Positions 1,261 through 14,642 of a DNA stretch of 59,998 nucleotides are shown one piece after another. A model generated the notes under the pieces. The model was given only the letters and a program-made list of their open reading frames with translations, was not told where the DNA came from and searched no databases. The translations under genes and the position numbers were made by a program. Where the stretch lies: positions 1 through 59,998 of the forward strand of contig CAYIBP010000004.1 in NCBI GenBank assembly GCA_964361705.1, written 5' to 3'. This stretch comes from an uncultured Candidatus Saccharibacteria bacterium. GTDB lineage: Bacteria; Patescibacteriota; Minisyncoccia; Phycocordibacterales; UBA9973. Position 1 is the stretch's first letter. The number at the start of each line of letters is the position of its first letter.

Positions 1261-1340
1261 GAACAAAAAATAATCAACAGTTCTCTAGAGGAAAAGTAAT
1301 TGAATGATACATTTATCAAAATTAACATAAAAGAAAAAAT

Positions 1341-1958
1341 ATGTATTGTCAAAATTGTGGATCAAAAAATGAAAGTGACTCTAAGTTCTGTCAAAACTGC
1401 GGAGTAAAATTATCAAATAGCCAACAGGAAAAGAAAGAAGAAAAACAGATAGCTAACATTGAATACTTTGCTATATCTCCCAAACGCCTTGCTCTATTTT
1501 CTATTCTTACATCTGGTATTTATCAGGTTTATTGGTTTTATAAAAATTGGGAAGCAATAAAGAAAGCAGAAAGGCAGAATATTTCGCCATTATTGAGATC
1601 GCTTTTTGCTGTATTTTTTTGTCATGGTTTATTCAAAAGAGTTTTGGGATCATCAAAAAGCCATGGATATAAGGAATTGTATTCGCCGGGTTGGCATGCA
1701 GCAGCATATATCGTACTTCTTTTGTTTGGAAATATTCTGAGCATAGATGAGTCAACCAATGCTAGTATTGTTTGGTTGGTTGCTGTATCAGTTAGTTTTA
1801 TTCCCTTGTTGTCGGTTCAAAGAGCAATTAATTTTAACAACGAAAAGTTAAAAGAAGGTAGTAGTTTTAAACAAGGATTTTCTGGTGGTGAAGTTGCATT
1901 GATCGTAATTGGAGTCATTTGGTCTTTGTTGATATTAATTGGCATATTTTTATCTTAA
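1341..1958 (+). CDS. Zinc-ribbon domain membrane protein
   Basis: N-terminal CxxC-x10-CxxC (MYCQNCG...FCQNCG), then several hydrophobic segments (T.GIY..YWFYKNW). Confidence 0.75.
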   Translation: MYCQNCGSKNESDSKFCQNCGVKLSNSQQEKKEEKQIANIEYFAISPKRLALFSILTSGIYQVYWFYKNWEAIKKAERQNISPLLRSLFAVFFCHGLFKRVLGSSKSHGYKELYSPGWHAAAYIVLLLFGNILSIDESTNASIVWLVAVSVSFIPLLSVQRAINFNNEKLKEGSSFKQGFSGGEVALIVIGVIWSLLILIGIFLS

Positions 1959-2097
1959 ATAATTTATAAAATGTTAAATAAATAAATGGATATCAGAATC
2001 TAGATATTTCTTAGTGATGTTGTTTACCAGTTGTTTGATTAAAGTTGCGAGAAGACAGAGATTTGCCTTAAAAATAAAAGATGCTATCATATCTAAC

Positions 2098-2454
2098 ATG
2101 CTTGATAAGAAGAAAATAAAAGAGAAATTAGAAAAGGAGAGGGATATGCTACTTGAGCAAATGCGTGGTATGGGCAAGTTGAATCCAGAAACAAATGACT
2201 GGGAAGCCACCCCTGAAGACAAGGGTTACAGAGATACTGATCAGAACGACATGGCAGATAGATTTGAGGATTTTGAAGAGAGAAGCTCAATGATAAAGGT
2301 TTTAGAAAGCCGATTGAATAACATTTTGATCGCCCTAAAAGGTTTAAATCGAGAGTCTTTCGGTAAATGTGAAGTCTGTAAGAAAGATATAGAAAAAGAC
2401 CGCATAGAAGCCAATCCTGCAGCCCGTACCTGCAAGAAACATCTAGAAAAATAA
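2098..2454 (+). CDS. DksA/TraR family C4-type zinc finger protein
   Basis: Coiled coil with DxxDxA (DQNDMA) and a C-terminal CEVC...RIEANPAARTCKKH finger (CxxC/CxxH). Start moved to ATG 2098, 7 nt after TGc-TATCAT. Confidence 0.85.
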   Translation: MLDKKKIKEKLEKERDMLLEQMRGMGKLNPETNDWEATPEDKGYRDTDQNDMADRFEDFEERSSMIKVLESRLNNILIALKGLNRESFGKCEVCKKDIEKDRIEANPAARTCKKHLEK

Positions 2455-2489
2455 TAAATCTTCCTGAATTAACCCCCACCTAAAATAAT

Positions 2490-4052
2490 ATGAGCTTCGC
2501 AAGAGTGTATTCCGCACAGGTCAATCTGCTTTCTGGACAAATAGTCACTATAGAGGTTGATCTATCTAAAGGCCTGCACACTTTTAATGTCGTAGGTTTA
2601 CCTGACAAAGCAGTAGATGAATCAAAAGATCGTGTAAGCTCGGCTATAAAAAATTCTGGTTTTAAATCTCCAAAAGCAAAAAATCAGAAAATAATAGTTT
2701 CTTTATCACCGGCTGATTTGAAAAAAGAAGGGCCGTTTTTTGATTTAGCTATAGCACTCGCCTACATGCTTGCGGCGGGAGATTTAAAATTTAACGGAGA
2801 GAAAAGGATTTTCTTAGGTGAACTGTCTTTGGACGGCACACTGCGTGGTATCAGAGGATCTTTGCCCCTCGTTATGGAAGCTAAAAAGAAAGGATTTGAG
2901 GAAATATATTTGCCGAAAGAAAATGCAGTAGAAGCGGCTCTTGTAGATGGCATAAAAATTTTTGGCGCTGGGAGTTTAAGGGAAGTGGTAGAGCATATCA
3001 ACGAGATAAAATCTTCTCATTTGGAAGCAAAGCAAAAACAAAATAAAAAAATACCACCTCAAGTAAAAACAAAAATAGCATACAAACTAGAAAAAAGAAT
3101 TTCTGATTTTTCTGATATTAAAGGGCAAGAAGGAGCAAAAAGAGGTCTAGAAATAGCGGCAGCCGGCGGACACAACATCGCTATGTATGGTCCGCCTGGT
3201 ACAGGTAAGACGATGCTGGCTAGAGCGTTTTCACAGCTTTTGCCTGATTTGGAAATAGATGAAGTACTTGAGATCACAGGAATACATTCCGTGGCGGGAG
3301 CTATACGAGGAGAGCTTGTGTCTTCTCCTCCTTTTCGTTCACCTCATCACACTTCTTCGTATGTATCTATAATAGGCGGAGGCACTTATCCGAAACCAGG
3401 TGAAGTGACTTTGGCGCACAGAGGAGTGCTTTTCTTAGATGAATTTCCAGAATTTGAAAAAAGGGTTATCGAATCCTTGCGTCAGCCTCTTGAAGACAAT
3501 ATCGTATCGATTTCTCGCGCTAAGGGCACTGCTACTTTTCCATCCAATTTTATTTTGGTTGCGGCTATGAATCCATGTCCATGCGGTAATGCCACTTCTA
3601 AACAGCGGGCCTGTATTTGTAAGCCTTCGGATTTAGACAGATACAAAAGGAAACTCTCCGGCCCGATAATGGATAGGATAGATTTGTGGGTTTCTGTAGG
3701 TAATGTGGATTATAAAAAATTAAGCGAAGAGGGGAACGGAGAAAAAAGCGACAAGATAAAACAGAGGGTAATGAACGCGCGCAAAATTCAGAAAAAAAGA
3801 TTTGAAAAATTTGGCCGAAATATAAGTATGAACAGTGAAATGAATGTGAAAGATTTGGCAAGCATGGCTAAACTCGATGAAGAAGTGAGACGTATCCTAG
3901 ACGATAGCGCCGAACATTTAGCTCTCTCCGCTCGTGCTTATCACCGAGTAATCAAGATCGCCCGAACAATAGCGGACCTAGAAAATTCAGAAGAGATAGA
4001 AGCAAATCATATCCTTGAAGCTCTGCAATATAGGCCAAGAGTGAATTCGTAG
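2490..4052 (+). CDS. comM: YifB/ComM family Mg-chelatase-like AAA+ ATPase
   Basis: N-terminal Lon-like domain (VVGLPDKAVDES), Walker A GPPGTGKT, LAHRGVLFLDEFPEF, AAMNPCPCG and LSARAYHRVIKIARTIADL. Confidence 0.92.
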   Translation: MSFARVYSAQVNLLSGQIVTIEVDLSKGLHTFNVVGLPDKAVDESKDRVSSAIKNSGFKSPKAKNQKIIVSLSPADLKKEGPFFDLAIALAYMLAAGDLKFNGEKRIFLGELSLDGTLRGIRGSLPLVMEAKKKGFEEIYLPKENAVEAALVDGIKIFGAGSLREVVEHINEIKSSHLEAKQKQNKKIPPQVKTKIAYKLEKRISDFSDIKGQEGAKRGLEIAAAGGHNIAMYGPPGTGKTMLARAFSQLLPDLEIDEVLEITGIHSVAGAIRGELVSSPPFRSPHHTSSYVSIIGGGTYPKPGEVTLAHRGVLFLDEFPEFEKRVIESLRQPLEDNIVSISRAKGTATFPSNFILVAAMNPCPCGNATSKQRACICKPSDLDRYKRKLSGPIMDRIDLWVSVGNVDYKKLSEEGNGEKSDKIKQRVMNARKIQKKRFEKFGRNISMNSEMNVKDLASMAKLDEEVRRILDDSAEHLALSARAYHRVIKIARTIADLENSEEIEANHILEALQYRPRVNS

Positions 4053-4053
4053 G

Positions 4054-4062
4054 TTATCCACA
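4054..4062 (+). promoter_or_regulatory. Consensus DnaA box (TTATCCACA)
   Basis: Perfect 9-mer in the intergenic region, 8 bp upstream of a -35 element. Confidence 0.55.
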
Positions 4063-4070
4063 GTTTTTGT

Positions 4071-4099
4071 TTGACAGTGAACGAACGTTCACTTATACT
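4071..4099 (+). promoter_or_regulatory. Sigma70 promoter of the small-ORF/lexA operon with a LexA (SOS) box in the spacer
   Basis: TTGACA (4071-4076), 17 bp, TATACT (4094-4099). The spacer holds the perfect palindrome AGTGAAC-GAAC-GTTCACT (4076-4093), which matches GAAC-N4-GTTC. Confidence 0.85.
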
Positions 4100-4140
4100 T
4101 ATCTACATAAGATTATCAGTAATTAAGTATATATAATTTT

Positions 4141-4335
4141 ATGTCGCAAAAACAATATCTAAAAATTATAGAGAAAGAGATCAATAGGGTAAACAAGATA
4201 ATTGACCTCAAGATCCTTCGCGGAGAGGAATACTGGAAGGAAGCCCGAGATCACAAACTCCTTTTGAGGAAGATTCGTTTCTATAATAGGCAGAGCTTTC
4301 TCAAGAGATTATTTCCCAGCTTTCTTTTCAGCTAA
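4141..4335 (+). CDS. Small basic protein (64 aa) with amphipathic C-terminus, first gene of the lexA operon
   Basis: Clean ORF between the LexA-box promoter and lexA (5-nt gap); ends SFLKRLFPSFLFS. Confidence 0.7.
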   Translation: MSQKQYLKIIEKEINRVNKIIDLKILRGEEYWKEARDHKLLLRKIRFYNRQSFLKRLFPSFLFS

Positions 4336-4340
4336 ATTTT

Positions 4341-4907
4341 ATGGTCAATCAGTATCAGAAAAAATTAGAATCTTTCTACGAAAACAATAAAAGAATGCCC
4401 ACATATTCCGAGATGATGGAGTTGTTTGATTTTAAATCCAAAAATGCAGTCTTTAAAATCGTTCAAAAGCTCATAGATGGGGGAATGGTAGCCAAAGACC
4501 ACCTTGGAAGACTGGTACCCTCAAAATCTTTCGGTGAAGTGCCAATGCTCGGTTTTGTGACTGCTGGATTTCCTGCAACTGTAGAAGAAGAGCTTACTGA
4601 TACTGTAAACCTCGATGATCTTTTAGTAAAAAATAAATCAATAACATATATGCTCGAAGTAGATGGAGATTCTATGATAGATGCTCATATAGAAAAAGGC
4701 GACATGGTACTGGTAGAGAAAACAAATCAGGCCAAAGACGGACAAATAATAATAGCTGAAGTAGATGGGGAGTTTACTATGAAATATTTTCGTAAAGACG
4801 GAAGCAAAGTCTGGCTCGAACCCGCAAATAAAAACTACAAGCCCATTTATCCAAAACACTCTTTAAATATAAACGCCGTGCTAAAAGCGGTGATAAGAAG
4901 ATACTAA
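4341..4907 (+). CDS. lexA: LexA repressor
   Basis: N-terminal wHTH (MPTYSEM...KSKNAV), Ala-Gly cleavage site (VTAGFP) and S24 Ser/Lys dyad (GDSM...TMK). Confidence 0.93.
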   Translation: MVNQYQKKLESFYENNKRMPTYSEMMELFDFKSKNAVFKIVQKLIDGGMVAKDHLGRLVPSKSFGEVPMLGFVTAGFPATVEEELTDTVNLDDLLVKNKSITYMLEVDGDSMIDAHIEKGDMVLVEKTNQAKDGQIIIAEVDGEFTMKYFRKDGSKVWLEPANKNYKPIYPKHSLNINAVLKAVIRRY

Positions 4908-4920
4908 ATAACTCAAAATT

Positions 4921-4952
4921 AAAAAACACTCCAAATTATGGGAGTGTTTTTT
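4921..4952. terminator. Bidirectional intrinsic terminator between lexA and HU
   Basis: AAAAAACACTCC-8nt-GGAGTGTTTTTT between convergent genes. Confidence 0.85.
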
Positions 4953-4973
4953 AATTTAATCTCGAGATTAAAA

Positions 4974-5246
4974 CTATGCAACCGCGTCTTTAAGAGCTTT
5001 TGCTGGTCTGAATTTTGGAACTTTCTTTGCAGCAACTTTGACTTGCTCTCCTGTCTTTGGATTGCGAGCCATTCTAGCTGCGCGAGCCTTAACAGAAAAG
5101 ATTCCAAAACCGGCAATTGAAACATCCATGCCTTTTTTCATACCGCCAACGATTGCATCGAACAATCCATCAACGATTTCCTCAGCTTGTACTTTTGTAC
5201 CTCCAAGCTTTGCCTGTACCCATTCAACCAATGATTGTTTATTCAT
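4974..5246 (-). CDS. hup: HU family DNA-binding protein
   Basis: IAGFGIF...ARMARNPKTGEQVKVAAKKVPKFRPAKALKDAV signature. Confidence 0.96.
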   Translation of the reverse strand: MNKQSLVEWVQAKLGGTKVQAEEIVDGLFDAIVGGMKKGMDVSIAGFGIFSVKARAARMARNPKTGEQVKVAAKKVPKFRPAKALKDAVA

Positions 5247-5435
5247 GTTATTAAAAGATAATTCTTGTAATATTTCGACCCTACCACCTTAGTATCATAC
5301 CAAGACGGCGATTTACTTATAAAATCAATACCCCTATATTATATATCAAGGGTTTTTTAGCGCAAGAGCACAAGGGTTTTTCCTCAGAATTAGGTTTTTG
5401 TAATTTTTATGCTGGATTAAGAGCAGAAAAATGAA

Positions 5436-6965
5436 TTATCTTGCGTATTCTATCACTCTTGTTTCTCTTATCAGTATTACTTTTATTTCACCGGGGTATT
5501 TTAGCTCTTGCTCTATTTTTACAGCGATATCACGGCCCATTATTTTAGCTTCTGCGTCGGAGACTTTGTCTGGAGTTACGAATATCCTTATTTCACGGCC
5601 TGCCTGCAGAGCGTAGGACTTTTCTACAGCAGGGAAGGCGTTTACTAGAGCCTCAAGTTCTTGTAGTCTCTTCAAGTAATTCTCGACTGAATCGCGTCTA
5701 GCGCCCGGTCGTCCTCCTGATATAGCATCTGCGGTCTGCACTATTACTGATTCAATTGTTTCATAAGGATAATCTTCATGGTGCGATTTCATCGCGGTTA
5801 TAATACGCTCATCTGCGCCGAATTTTTGAAGGATGCGTATGCCTATTTCTATGTGAGTACCTTGGACCTCGTGATCAAGGGCTTTTCCTATGTCGTGTAC
5901 TAATGCGCCGGCTTTTGCTATAGCTACATCCGCTCCGAGTTCTTCGGCTATCATACCAGCGATATGCGTCATTTCTATGGAATGTTGCAAAACATTTTGT
6001 CCATAACTTGTACGGAAGTAGAGTCTGCCGATTATTGCTACTATTCTAGGATCGAAATTCAAGATTCCGCATTCGTAAACAGCTTGTTCACCCTTTTCTT
6101 TTATTATTTTGTTTATATCTTCTTTTGCTTTTTCAACCAATTCTTCTATCTTTGCAGGTTGAATTCGCCCGTCTAATATGAGGTTTTCCAGCGCAAGGCG
6201 CGCAACTTGTCTTCTGACAGGATCAAAGGAGGAAATAACTATAGTACCAGGAGTGTCATCAACTATGAGCTCTACTCCTGATGCGCGTTCAAAAGCGCGA
6301 ATATTACGGCCTTCTTTTCCTATTATTTTCCCCTTGATTTCGTTGTTTGGTATGCTGACCGAAGTCACCATGAGTTCAGCGGCAGTGCTGGATGCTAGGC
6401 GTTGGATAGAAGTGGATAATATGTCTTTTGCTCTGCGGTCAAGCTTTTCTTCATTGTTATTTTCGAGTTTTTGAATTCTTATCAAAAGGTCTTCCTCGTA
6501 TTTTTTCTCTATATCCTTGATCAAGAGCTCTTTTGCCTCGGATTCGCTTAACTTTGAAATTCTTTCAAGTTCTGTTTTCTTGTCTTCTTCTATCTTAGAA
6601 ACTTTTTCTTGTACCTTTTTTACTTCTTCTATCTTGAGTTTGATATTCTCGGTTTCTTTGTCTATATCAAGCTGTCTCGCGTCCAAGAACTCATCTTTTT
6701 TTATGAGCCTTTTTTCTTTTTCTTTAAACTCTTGGTCGTGCTTTTTTTCTTCCTCTTTTAATTCAATGAGCCTTTTTTCAGCTTTACTGTTTGCTTCGTC
6801 TAATATCTTTTGCGCTTCTTCTTTGGCAGAGAGCGTCATCTGTTTGATATCTATTTCTATGGATTTCCTTTTACCTAAAGCGACGATGACTCGCAGGTAG
6901 TATCCGATCCCAACGCCTAAAAGGAGTACTCCGACTCCAATTAGTATTATAATTAATGAGCTCAT
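5436..6965 (-). CDS. rny: Ribonuclease Y
   Basis: N-terminal TM, coiled coil, KH domain (KGKIIGKEGRNIR) and HD domain (LVHDIGKA). Confidence 0.97.
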   Translation of the reverse strand: MSSLIIILIGVGVLLLGVGIGYYLRVIVALGKRKSIEIDIKQMTLSAKEEAQKILDEANSKAEKRLIELKEEEKKHDQEFKEKEKRLIKKDEFLDARQLDIDKETENIKLKIEEVKKVQEKVSKIEEDKKTELERISKLSESEAKELLIKDIEKKYEEDLLIRIQKLENNNEEKLDRRAKDILSTSIQRLASSTAAELMVTSVSIPNNEIKGKIIGKEGRNIRAFERASGVELIVDDTPGTIVISSFDPVRRQVARLALENLILDGRIQPAKIEELVEKAKEDINKIIKEKGEQAVYECGILNFDPRIVAIIGRLYFRTSYGQNVLQHSIEMTHIAGMIAEELGADVAIAKAGALVHDIGKALDHEVQGTHIEIGIRILQKFGADERIITAMKSHHEDYPYETIESVIVQTADAISGGRPGARRDSVENYLKRLQELEALVNAFPAVEKSYALQAGREIRIFVTPDKVSDAEAKIMGRDIAVKIEQELKYPGEIKVILIRETRVIEYAR

Positions 6966-7223
6966 AAGCTTTGTTTCAGCTTATAAAAACAGCCCCTATG
7001 CTTTGTTTTGCTTCTGTTTTAGACGCAGATTTGCATTCATGCACAAAATACCAAAATCTTCTTTTAACGATCTTTCTTGTATTTTATCTCGCAACGACAT
7101 AGATGGGAATTTCTATAAACCAATTGAAAATAAATTTGTAAAATCAACATTTACAATATAACAAATGTTAAAGACTTTGTCTATGTTTGTGTTTCTAATG
7201 AAAATCATCAAAAATCTGACAGT

Positions 7224-7823
7224 CTAAGCCTTAGATGGTGGAGTTTTGGTCTTAGTGAGAACTTCGTCTATGATGCCGTATTTTTTGGCTTCTTCTGCGT
7301 CCATAAAGAAATCTCGTTCTACATCTTTCTCTATTTGAATGAGAGACTTGCCTGTATTTTTAGCAAGTATTTTGTTTAAGCTATCTCTTGTTTTTAAGAT
7401 ATGTTTTGCAGAAATAGCAATATCTGTGGCTTGACCTTCTACTCCGCCGAGAGGTTGGTGGATCATAACTTCGGCATTTGGCAAGATAAATCTTTTGCCT
7501 TTTTTGCCAGCAGAGAGCACTAAGGCGGCGCCGGATGCTGCGAGCCCTACACAAAAAGTAGAAACATCTGGACGGATGTGGCTCATAGTGTCTACTATGG
7601 CCAATGTGGAAGTGACGGATCCGCCGGGAGAATTGATATACAAGAAGATATCTTTTTTGGGATCTTCGGACTCTAAAAACAAAAGTTGAGCGATGACGAT
7701 GTTTGCCACATTGTCATCTATTGGCCCTGCCAGAAAAACTATGCGCTCGCGCAAAAGGCGAGAGTAAATATCATAAGCTCTCTCTCCAAACTGCGATTTT
7801 TCTATAACTGTTGGTATTAACAT
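7224..7823 (-). CDS. clpP: ATP-dependent Clp protease proteolytic subunit
   Basis: [27 protein letters not shown] (Ser), MIHQP (His) and ERDFF (Asp). Confidence 0.97.
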
Positions 7824-7917
7824 ATTTTTATTTAAGATTTAAAGTTAGTAAGTAAGAGGTATTTTATAAGACCACTTCTCGCCCCGCTGTGGCGGGGTAA
7901 CTGTTGGTATTAACATA
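7805..7917. repeat. 20-bp direct repeat of the clpP start (7805-7824 and 7898-7917) flanking 73 bp that contain a GC palindrome
   Basis: TAACTGTTGGTATTAACATA occurs twice; CCCCGC-TGTG-GCGGGG lies at 7882-7897. Confidence 0.85.
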
Positions 7918-7923
7918 ATGGTA

Positions 7924-9000
7924 TTATACTAAATTTTCCAAGAACTGGAAGACTCTTTCGTTGGTTAGGACATTTTCTGCATGGATGGTGGCGCGTTCTT
8001 TGTCTGCATCTTTATAAATTTCTAAAATTTGCGTTACCTCTCTTTCTACTTGTTCTTTATCGGCAAAAAGTTTCTCAATTTCCGCTATCTTATTTAATGC
8101 CATAGATAATTTGGCTTTTTTCTCCGCATCTTTTCTGAATTCTCCTTTTAAATCTTCCATCGTCTTATTCAGATGTTTCAAATAGTCTTCAAACTTCAAA
8201 CCCATCTGATTAATATCTGATTCCATTCTGTATAAAATCTTATTTAGTTCTATATCTACTAGTATATCTGGAAGGTCAGTCTTGATTTCATCTATGATTT
8301 CCTCAACTATTTTTAACCTAGTTTTTTCTTTTAGCTGATTTTCTTTTTCCAGTTTTATATTTGTTTTTAGCTTCTCCTTAAAGTCAGCGATATTTTCAAA
8401 AGGACCGAGAGCTTTTACGAATTCATCATTAAGTTCTGGCAAGGCTTCTTTATTTGGAGAATCTGTTTCATCTTCCTTGTCTTTAGCCCCTTCTTTTACT
8501 TGTTCGGCAATGTGTTTTTTGGGAGCGCGAGATTTTCTGATGTCTAAAATAGTGTCTTCTAGTTCTTTTTCTGTTACTTCGAGATTTTTATCTTCTTTGC
8601 TAGTTTTAGTGATTACTTTTTTTGCTATTGATTTGTAATCAGGCAATTCTATTTCAGGCATGACTGAAAGTTTTATTTTGAAATTAAGAGGATTTTTGCG
8701 TACGAGTTTAGTGATGGATATTTCTGGTCTGCTTATGGCATCAATTTTATTTTCTTCTAAAATCTTGGGATAATGCTCATTGAGAGCCATATCTGCCATC
8801 TCTGTAAGAATTTGAGATTCGGGAATTTTAGAGAGCAGGACACTTTCCGGCGCTTTACCTTTTCTGAAACCAGGTAATTCAATATTTTCAGCGATCTTTT
8901 TTACAGCTCTACTGAAGTATTCCTCAAAGATTTCAGCTCCAAGCTCTGCCTCTATTTCTATTTCGCTTTTAGGCAACTTTTTTATATCTATTTTTAGCAT
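7924..9000 (-). CDS. tig: Trigger factor (appears to lack the FKBP/PPIase domain)
   Basis: Ribosome-binding signature GFRKGKAP, LPELNDEF and a C-terminal SurA-like region; only 358 aa. Confidence 0.92.
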   Translation of the reverse strand: MLKIDIKKLPKSEIEIEAELGAEIFEEYFSRAVKKIAENIELPGFRKGKAPESVLLSKIPESQILTEMADMALNEHYPKILEENKIDAISRPEISITKLVRKNPLNFKIKLSVMPEIELPDYKSIAKKVITKTSKEDKNLEVTEKELEDTILDIRKSRAPKKHIAEQVKEGAKDKEDETDSPNKEALPELNDEFVKALGPFENIADFKEKLKTNIKLEKENQLKEKTRLKIVEEIIDEIKTDLPDILVDIELNKILYRMESDINQMGLKFEDYLKHLNKTMEDLKGEFRKDAEKKAKLSMALNKIAEIEKLFADKEQVEREVTQILEIYKDADKERATIHAENVLTNERVFQFLENLV

Positions 9001-14297: not shown

Positions 14298-14317
14298 TTA
14301 TCCAGACTTTATCCACA
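14298..14317 (+). promoter_or_regulatory. Tandem DnaA-box-like sites in the divergent nusA / surface-cluster intergenic region
   Basis: TTATCCAGA (14298-14306, one mismatch) and TTATCCACA (14309-14317, perfect). Confidence 0.5.
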
Positions 14318-14363
14318 GTAAGTGTGTAAAGGGAAGGAATAGCATTGTATAATGAAATACAAT

Positions 14364-14642
14364 ATGCAATCGCCCAAGAAAAATATGATCTTAGTTTTTT
14401 TGATTTTAGGTTTCATTGCTTTGGCTATTGCTTTATATCTTTTCAATCAGGGGCAGGATTATCGAGGTGTTTCTTCTGAAGAGAAGAAAGTATTGAAAGA
14501 ACTTGAAGACCTTAAACGCCGTCCGAATGATACCAAAACAGAAGAAGAAGTTTTGAAAGAGCTTTATTCTTTAAAAGCGCCTTTAAAAAATAAGGCAGAA
14601 GAGGAAAGAGTCCTTAAAGAATTAGAGAGCTTAAAGCCATAA
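14364..14642 (+). CDS. Small membrane-anchored protein with three EE.VLKEL..LK repeats
   Basis: N-terminal TM and three helical repeats. The ATG at 14352 overlaps the TATAAT, so the second ATG is preferred. Confidence 0.65.
   Translation: MQSPKKNMILVFLILGFIALAIALYLFNQGQDYRGVSSEEKKVLKELEDLKRRPNDTKTEEEVLKELYSLKAPLKNKAEEERVLKELESLKP

Follow-up and report, generated by a model that had tools for sequence, protein, structure and literature searches.

What is the function of a 64-residue protein that is encoded directly beside lexA, under a candidate LexA box, in bacteria of the Patescibacteria? An earlier note on this DNA had proposed that the gene (termed here the small gene) specifies an SOS-induced inhibitor of cell division with a MinD-like membrane-targeting tail, and we followed up this proposal in the window (i.e., the whole stretch of 59,998 nucleotides that was analysed) and in related loci. 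The proposal has precedents, as in Bacillus, Listeria, Staphylococcus, Mycobacterium, and Corynebacterium small LexA-controlled genes beside lexA turned out to encode proteins that inhibit division (PMC6851548; PMC13396833), and adjacency to lexA was a successful lead to SosA, YneA, and others (PMC6851548). The sole prior study of the SOS network in Patescibacteria that is known to us is that of Sanchez-Osuna, Barbe and Erill 2017 (Environ Microbiol 19:3465), which is cited in PMC8565304 and PMC7739468. In these tiny, mostly uncultured organisms, the small protein, which is well delimited, conserved over a wide range, unannotated, and marked by an exceptionally clear regulatory signature, is an obvious candidate for coupling DNA damage to the cell cycle, and its 64 residues make it cheap to synthesize and cheap to test in other hosts.

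The small gene is a real, conserved protein-coding gene. Counted directly from the sequence, its product contains 16 Lys or Arg residues versus 7 Asp or Glu residues (net charge, +9), and the net charge is +8 to +10 throughout the family; the earlier note was right that a basic reading frame of this length lies here and ends, over its last 13 residues, in SFLKRLFPSFLFS. A word-indexed search returned 170 relatives (57 to 88% identity), every one of which is called "hypothetical protein" and of which the named ones all belong to Candidatus Nomurabacteria, Paceibacterota, or the Patescibacteria group. Widening this search brought back largely the close relatives that were already listed. An exhaustive profile search covering 1.84 billion cluster representatives (clusters at 50% identity) yielded 322 clusters at E<=1e-3 and 61 at E<=1e-10, with lengths of 34 to 133 aa. 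Across 109 diverse members that are 30 to 63% identical to the window protein, residues M1, N18, I21, D22, and H38 are invariant, and I25, G28, and Y31 are >90% conserved. When 81 orthologues of the small gene were compared in pairs, nucleotides differed on average by 0.205, 0.146, and 0.51 at the first, second, and third codon positions, respectively; such an excess at third positions is the signature of selection on the small protein. AlphaFold2, run with the family alignment, modelled the window protein as a helix (residues 3 to 27), a turn at G28, and a second helix (residues 32 to 57), with pLDDT values of 89 to 97 up to residue 50, then 68 and 52 in the tail (mean, 87). The model predicts that residues 1 to 50 form a conserved basic helical hairpin, and it agrees with the helical nature that had been ascribed to the protein.

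The family is unannotated and has no match to anything described in the libraries searched. Pfam, searched at E<=1 with the window protein and at E<=0.1 with 109 members, yielded no more than stray coiled-coil matches that we regard as noise (such as HisKA, DegS, and Lon_lid); NCBIfam returned nothing meaningful for the small protein, and PHROGs contained no match to the family. Among sequence profiles of PDB entries, the only hits were a GCN4 chimera (E 0.2) and coiled coils of haemagglutinin, Foldseek searches of PDB and BFVD found only generic hairpins (E>0.5), and no relative was present among GenBank phages, plasmids, or IMG/VR viral contigs. As every family and fold search was negative, the small protein does not belong, by the tests used, to the SulA, YneA/ChiZ (LysM), Sda, DinI, YnzC, or gp7 families.

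The features of the locus are listed in Table 1.

Table 1. Features in and around the small gene-lexA operon (window coordinates)
Feature	Position	Strand	Remarks
Gene for ComM-type Mg-chelatase-like ATPase	2490-4052		Upstream of the small gene
Putative DnaA box, consensus TTATCCACA	4054..4062	+	8 nt upstream of the -35 hexamer
-35 hexamer TTGACA	4071..4076	+	From promoter scan; kept in all loci
Predicted LexA operator GTGAACGAACGTTCAC	4077..4092	+	Perfect palindrome filling the promoter spacer; core GAAC-N4-GTTC at 4079-4090
-10 hexamer TATACT	4094..4099	+	From promoter scan
Small gene (64 aa)	4141..4335	+	ATG start; product MSQKQYLKIIEKEINRVNKIIDLKILRGEEYWKEARDHKLLLRKIRFYNRQSFLKRLFPSFLFS
C-terminal tail SFLKRLFPSFLFS (residues 52-64)	4294..4332	+	Phe/Arg-rich, without acidic residue
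lexA (188 aa)	4341..4907	+	5 nt past the stop codon of the small gene; TIGR00498, Peptidase_S24
Bidirectional terminator hairpin	4917..4956	.	-20.7 kcal/mol, z = -6.7; between lexA and the convergent HU gene

The promoter (TTGACA-17 nt-TATACT), situated 42 bases 5' of the small gene, matches the consensus at 11 of 12 positions, and its spacer holds GAAC-N4-GTTC, which we take to be the Gram-positive-type LexA operator. This is the sole copy in the 60-kb window, also when three mismatches to the extended form are tolerated; as a single site per 60 kb is what chance would give (mean, 0.86), the window by itself is no proof of an operator, and it is conservation that provides it. More specifically, an operator within the same promoter precedes the small gene in 81 of 81 close (Nomurabacteria-type) loci, where it takes the form GAACG-NN-CGTTC in a TTGACA...TATACT promoter and lies within 160 nt of the small gene in 78 loci and within 400 nt in the remaining three; elsewhere in the flanking DNA of these loci (553 kb), GAAC-N4-GTTC occurs once. 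The operator is intact in five of six distant loci and has one mismatch in the sixth. An independent sign of the box in distant lineages comes from 14 database proteins whose wrongly extended N-termini contain ERSFTYT or a close variant, because this heptapeptide is the operator plus the -10 hexamer in translation (GAA CGN TCG TTC ACT TAT ACT). The claim that the small gene is the first gene under a LexA box is thereby confirmed. We thus find the arrangement of a LexA (SOS) regulon member, i.e., an operator of the lineage's own type placed so as to occlude the promoter, and this arrangement suggests that LexA binds GTGAACGAACGTTCAC and that DNA damage would induce the operon.

The lexA product scores 127.5 bits against TIGR00498 (cut-off, 110.95), covering model positions 15 to 201 of 203, and 5.9e-30 against Peptidase_S24; as the gene spans the full TIGR00498 model, a split LexA is ruled out. 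Given the promoter before the small gene, lexA a few bases beyond it, and the single terminator after lexA, the two genes constitute a two-gene operon in which the small gene comes first. The regulatory part of the answer, namely an autoregulated SOS operon, as predicted from these elements, with the small protein as its first product, is secure on comparative grounds.

The 5' leader, from the -10 hexamer to the start codon, varies between about 0 and about 370 nt owing to inserted elements. One insert of ~45 nt, TTTAAC-GGGTGAC-A-TTTTATAGTCGTTTCACTCCTT, recurs about 50 nt before the ATG in four loci (L005, L057, L070, and L080); GC-rich hairpins of the form CCCCTACC...GGGGGAGG are other inserts, and leader inserts were noted also in L001, L042, L051, L071, L073, and L078. 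Rfam gave no match in the window or in the long 5' leaders. In five further loci (L010, L015, L022, L025, and L033), the operator is just 27 nt from the ATG and the -10 hexamer ends about 6 to 7 nt before it, and the mRNA of the small gene is probably leaderless there. In the window, neither the small gene nor lexA is preceded by a visible Shine-Dalgarno sequence. Start-codon misannotations of the ERSFTYT kind were seen in P0130, P0150, P0157, P0175, P0214, P0224, P0231, P0238, P0263, and P0264, among others.

The earlier note had held that its proposal would fall if the small gene were not conserved, or not linked to lexA, in relatives. The proposal passed this test strongly: in each of the 88 places that we examined, which reach down to about 30-35% identity, the small gene adjoins a lexA of the same orientation, and the operator is conserved; in this respect it resembles the genes of the YneA/SosA/ChiZ/DivS type, which are small, LexA-controlled, and conserved beside lexA. 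A scan of one genome per species found a relative in 138 genomes, and in the best 80 loci of these, in which linkage was read, lexA lies immediately 3' of the small gene in every case. Likewise, seven distant members (profile E about 1e-14 to 1e-8) all stand beside a same-strand Peptidase_S24 gene, in quite different surroundings. Of 81 loci, 22 have an overlap of the two genes in ATGCGTAA at the junction, and 69 have a gap of <=30 nt; since comM upstream and the HU gene downstream lie at varying distances, the small gene-lexA pair is tighter than general gene order. One distant lineage (L086, 3924-4748) has the two genes the other way round, the small gene starting 15 nt behind lexA, and the DnaA box, the -35 hexamer, the operator (one mismatch, GTAC for GAAC), and the -10 hexamer all lie upstream of lexA.

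These data bear on the reading that the small gene is a leader ORF without a functional product, whose translation would merely control lexA expression. Such a leader would explain the position immediately upstream of lexA and the overlap of its stop codon with the lexA start in some genomes, but the gene persists in L086, where it is downstream of lexA, its amino-acid sequence is conserved to about 30% identity with invariant residues, its third codon positions are the most variable, and its fold is confidently predicted by AlphaFold. We consider the chance that it is a mere leader next to negligible.

A more substantial alternative, though one that we regard as somewhat unlikely, is that the protein modulates the SOS switch itself, its hairpin acting as a LexA co-repressor, as a modulator of LexA cleavage, or as a binder of RecA filaments; as its amount would be tied to that of LexA, it could set how readily the response starts or how it subsides. 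The strict operon partnership with lexA fits such a modulator equally well: the pairing is never broken, even in the reversed L086, the outer flanks differ between lineages, and the overlap at the junction in 22 of 81 loci would afford translational coupling. The small protein (57 to 82% identity) is also conserved nearly as well as LexA (62 to 86%), and the invariance of three polar residues (N18, D22, and H38) points to an interface with a particular protein partner. There are precedents as well: DinI and RecX act on RecA, and gp7 of Bacillus phage GIL01 is a ~50-aa helical protein that binds LexA as a co-repressor. The small protein is similar to gp7 in being small, helical, and tied to LexA; gp7, however, is phage-encoded, whereas the small-protein family has no relative in the phage and viral collections, and no sequence or fold match to gp7, DinI, or RecX was found among PDB entries. 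Moreover, such a modulator would leave unexplained the conserved hydrophobic, cationic helix that ends the protein behind a variable linker (see below), and genuine division inhibitors are just as conservedly adjacent to lexA (PMC6851548). Were the protein a LexA/RecA modulator, a strategy that has so far been described for a phage would have its equivalent on a chromosome.

Several observations were made on the wider neighbourhood. In the window (2014-9000), the conserved neighbourhood comprises genes for a DksA/TraR zinc-finger protein and the ComM-like ATPase, the small gene, and lexA, followed beyond lexA by the convergent HU gene and those for RNase Y, ClpP, and trigger factor, whereas in L086 (107-4748) the HU, RNase Y, ClpP, and trigger-factor block is on the other side of the operon. 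On the contig of another distant lineage (P0282; genes at 1305-3658), lexA is followed at a distance of about 460 nt by a gene for a Y-family polymerase (IMS, IMS_C; DinB-like), as is typical of SOS neighbourhoods, with an opposite-strand small gene between the two. A supposed division gene cluster at 44-54 kb of the window was rejected, as this region encodes a PaaX-like protein, RecO, tRNA synthetases, an M16 peptidase, and others.

Upstream of the promoter, TTATCCACA, which is identical to the textbook DnaA-box consensus, is present (with <=1 mismatch, mostly exact) before the -35 hexamer in 86 of 87 loci, at a distance of 8 to 10 nt in 81 of the 86. Other exact copies numbered 7 in 590 kb of loci, and our estimate from base composition is that chance would give ~7; as the remaining copies are at the chance level, the motif is specific to the lexA-operon promoter, and a general promoter element is ruled out on the same grounds. 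A consensus box close to the promoter is what a DnaA-controlled promoter has, and it suggests that DnaA binds TTATCCACA; the operon thus appears to read both DNA damage (through LexA) and replication status (through DnaA), two inputs that would converge on one promoter. A DnaA box at a lexA promoter is not mentioned in the open literature searched.

Apart from the box before the small gene, the window contains a single exact TTATCCACA, at 14309, where it is preceded by TTATCCAGA at 14298 (region 14298-14317) and stands 31 nt before a TATAAT, a spacing as at the lexA promoter. Downstream of this box (14352-14642) lies the gene for a protein of ~93 aa that has a single hydrophobic segment and recurring EE(K/E)VLKELE-LK units; its mRNA is probably leaderless.

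The DnaA box bears on a further reading, which we judge unlikely, namely that the basic hairpin binds DNA, DnaA, or the sliding clamp and pauses the initiation or elongation of replication after damage. The strongly positive net charge of the family and the tie between operon and replication status are both in line with such a factor. The sliding-clamp-binding motif is QL[SD]LF, and nine members (P0144, P0183, P0195, P0225, P0239, P0251, P0253, P0255, and P0265) end in the similar L[SATH][LI]F-COOH; this ending is, however, confined to that small subgroup, other subgroups ending in SF, FF, YA, QF, QY, MF, or F[MV]F. An analogue in form is Sda of Bacillus subtilis, a DnaA-controlled replication checkpoint protein that is induced by replication stress or DNA damage and consists of a 46-aa helical hairpin with a hydrophobic C-terminal degradation tail. 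The small gene and sda are alike in specifying a helical hairpin of about 50 aa with a hydrophobic C-terminal tail, from a promoter with DnaA boxes. In contrast, Sda targets sporulation histidine kinases, which are not expected in these organisms, and its gene is unlinked to lexA; the small protein has in common with Sda the general hairpin shape only, and it matched neither the Sda family in Pfam or PDB sequence profiles nor any DNA-binding family. Furthermore, a Phe-rich tail is atypical of DNA binders.

It is this tail that most directly concerns the proposed membrane targeting. In 258 members, the last 12 residues comprise 21 to 28% Phe, 13 to 14% Ser, 11 to 12% Leu, 11 to 16% Lys plus Arg, and 0.3 to 1.6% Asp plus Glu, and about half of the members end in Phe. 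The helical hydrophobic moment of the tail exceeds that of shuffled versions in 80 to 84% of members (median z, 0.8 to 1.3), which is a modest signal. The sequence of the tail drifts, but its composition and its amphipathic character persist. The model of a distant member contains the same hairpin, which has a pLDDT above 90 there as in the window protein, an unstructured linker (residues 49 to 55), and a separate terminal helix (residues 56 to 67); in that member's clade, the linker varies by 0 to 25 residues, and the last ~15 residues keep [GS]W[FL]x[RK]...[FM][VI]SxF[MV][FL]-COOH. By analogy, such a layout of domain, variable linker, and terminal peptide is that of membrane tethers (FtsA, MinD) and also that of protein-binding short linear motifs. 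The tail appears best described as a conserved type of peptide, i.e., cationic, aromatic, and amphipathic, and it is a putative amphipathic membrane-binding helix and/or degradation signal. Its longest stretch free of K, R, D, E, Q, N, and H has a median of 7 residues, which means that the tail cannot span a membrane; a transmembrane tail anchor, for which it is too short and too charged, is ruled out.

The same stretch weighs against a toxin that, like TisB or DinQ, is induced in the SOS response and acts on the membrane, depolarising it and bringing about dormancy. LexA control, small size, and a cationic aromatic tail are as would be expected of such a toxin, but a soluble hairpin, rich in charges and strongly conserved, makes up the bulk of the protein, the gene is constitutively co-expressed with lexA, and no antisense RNA or antitoxin arrangement was seen at the locus. 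We therefore hold a toxin to be highly unlikely, and both it and the mere leader ORF can be set aside as unlikely.

As to the likeness to MinD, KGFLKRLFGG is the membrane-targeting sequence of E. coli MinD (PMC5471200; PMC3189734), and PMC5471200 confirms it in the form that the earlier note had given. The hexamer FLKRLF is common to the window protein and MinD, and the composition of the tail is like that of membrane peptides; this part of the "MinD-like" claim stood. The other part did not, as the match amounts to six residues in one sequence and involves no homology. The hexamer is present in 10 of 308 family members, the family consensus at its position being F[FL][KR][KR]LF. As regards a terminal amphipathic helix of the MinD/ParA kind, the composition fits, but the moment for the window protein exceeds that of shuffles by only 0.7 sd, and its tail contains a helix-interrupting proline and has a pLDDT of 52 to 68. 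Like the C-terminal helices of MinD and FtsA, the tail is a short cationic, aromatic/hydrophobic, putatively amphipathic peptide at the extreme C-terminus, and it resembles the membrane-binding peptides of both FtsY and MinD. Unlike MinD and FtsA, the small protein, 64 aa as a whole, has no ATPase or actin-like domain and carries a proline in its tail helix; the hairpin gave no P-loop family match, and thus no deviant Walker A ATPase domain of the MinD/ParA kind was found. The likeness to MinD would be convergence at most. Binding of the small protein to the membrane is what the conserved character of the tail suggests.

A second role of the tail is also plausible. Phe-rich termini are typical recognition signals of proteases (Lon, ClpXP). 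The C-terminus of SosA doubles as a proteolysis signal (PMC6851548), and that of the small protein may likewise serve in its turnover.

Comparison with established SOS-controlled division inhibitors reveals both likenesses and differences. SosA, YneA, ChiZ, and DivS share with the small protein their small size, a lineage-restricted sequence, control by a LexA box, and a conserved place beside lexA. Their genes, however, are divergent from lexA, whereas the small gene is on the lexA transcript, and their products, anchored by a transmembrane segment at the N-terminus, exert their effect on the outer side of the membrane, some via a LysM domain; in the small protein, there is no transmembrane segment (the N-terminus is charged), no signal peptide, no LysM match, and no sequence similarity to them. 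To our knowledge, all known Gram-positive-type SOS inhibitors have a transmembrane segment, and such a segment sets YneA, SosA, ChiZ, DivS, SidA, and DidA apart from the small protein. SulA of Enterobacteria and Pseudomonas, a LexA-controlled inhibitor of FtsZ that is degraded by Lon, is likewise cytoplasmic and SOS-controlled, and a C-terminal degradation signal is plausible for the small protein too. In contrast, SulA measures about 160 aa and has an alpha/beta RecA-like fold, so that size and fold differ, and no match to the SulA family was obtained by sequence or fold (Pfam, PDB). In Pseudomonas aeruginosa, sulA is co-transcribed with lexA; there it lies downstream of lexA, whereas the small gene lies upstream.

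Our leading reading, which we hold tentatively and with less confidence than an even chance, is that the small protein inhibits division while its tail keeps it at the membrane. As a division inhibitor it is plausible by precedent, because small genes beside lexA have repeatedly proved to encode such inhibitors, and the division machinery as its target is suggested by the same analogy. The proposed sequence of events is as follows. The small gene and lexA would form a self-repressed two-gene SOS operon, in which LexA, seated on the operator between the -35 and -10 hexamers, would block RNA polymerase, and replication status probably feeds in as well, via the conserved DnaA box that lies a little further upstream. 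Upon DNA damage, RecA-stimulated self-cleavage of LexA would free the promoter, and one mRNA would then give rise to the 64-aa protein and to new LexA. The small protein, a cytoplasmic basic hairpin held on the inner membrane face by its Phe/Arg-rich C-terminal helix, would bind a division component (FtsZ/FtsA or the FtsW-FtsI synthase) and delay septation until re-accumulating LexA shuts off the operon; its hydrophobic tail may also mark it for rapid proteolysis.

Several points count against a division inhibitor. Besides lacking a transmembrane segment and having a tail that is only modestly amphipathic and interrupted by a proline in the window protein, the small protein shows no homology to any known inhibitor or to any family in the searches above. 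In addition, since the small gene is upstream of lexA on one transcript, its product is also made at the basal level needed to maintain LexA, which is awkward for an inhibitor unless it is short-lived or threshold-dependent. A LexA/RecA modulator or a replication-directed factor fits the observations almost as well as does a division inhibitor. Phrased more broadly, the family may be a new checkpoint effector of Patescibacteria (class Paceibacteria), i.e., a membrane-tethered hairpin that is co-translated with LexA from a LexA/DnaA-gated promoter and arrests division (or replication) after damage, a possibility that we again rate as falling short of even.

Small SOS-controlled effectors encoded beside lexA are already known as a kind. 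What appears to be new here is the lineage, the pairing of the operator with a DnaA box, the location of the gene on the transcript of lexA itself, and the predicted build of the protein, in which a soluble hairpin is combined with an amphipathic helix at the terminus. Should the small protein be a division inhibitor, it would be the first from Patescibacteria and of a new architecture, having no transmembrane segment and being encoded on the lexA transcript; should the reading as a checkpoint effector be true, a huge uncultured radiation would possess a non-homologous, differently built counterpart of SulA, YneA, and SosA.

Sequence divergence alone suggests that the family spreads beyond Nomurabacteria and Paceibacterota. 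A 277-kb contig labelled Burkholderiales (L013; JAMPXW010000001.1) carries a Nomurabacteria-type operon, as do many metagenome-assembled genomes labelled "uncultured Candidatus Saccharibacteria", and ComM and LexA are 74 to 85% identical in that contig and these genomes; the labels Burkholderiales and Saccharibacteria look wrong or generic.
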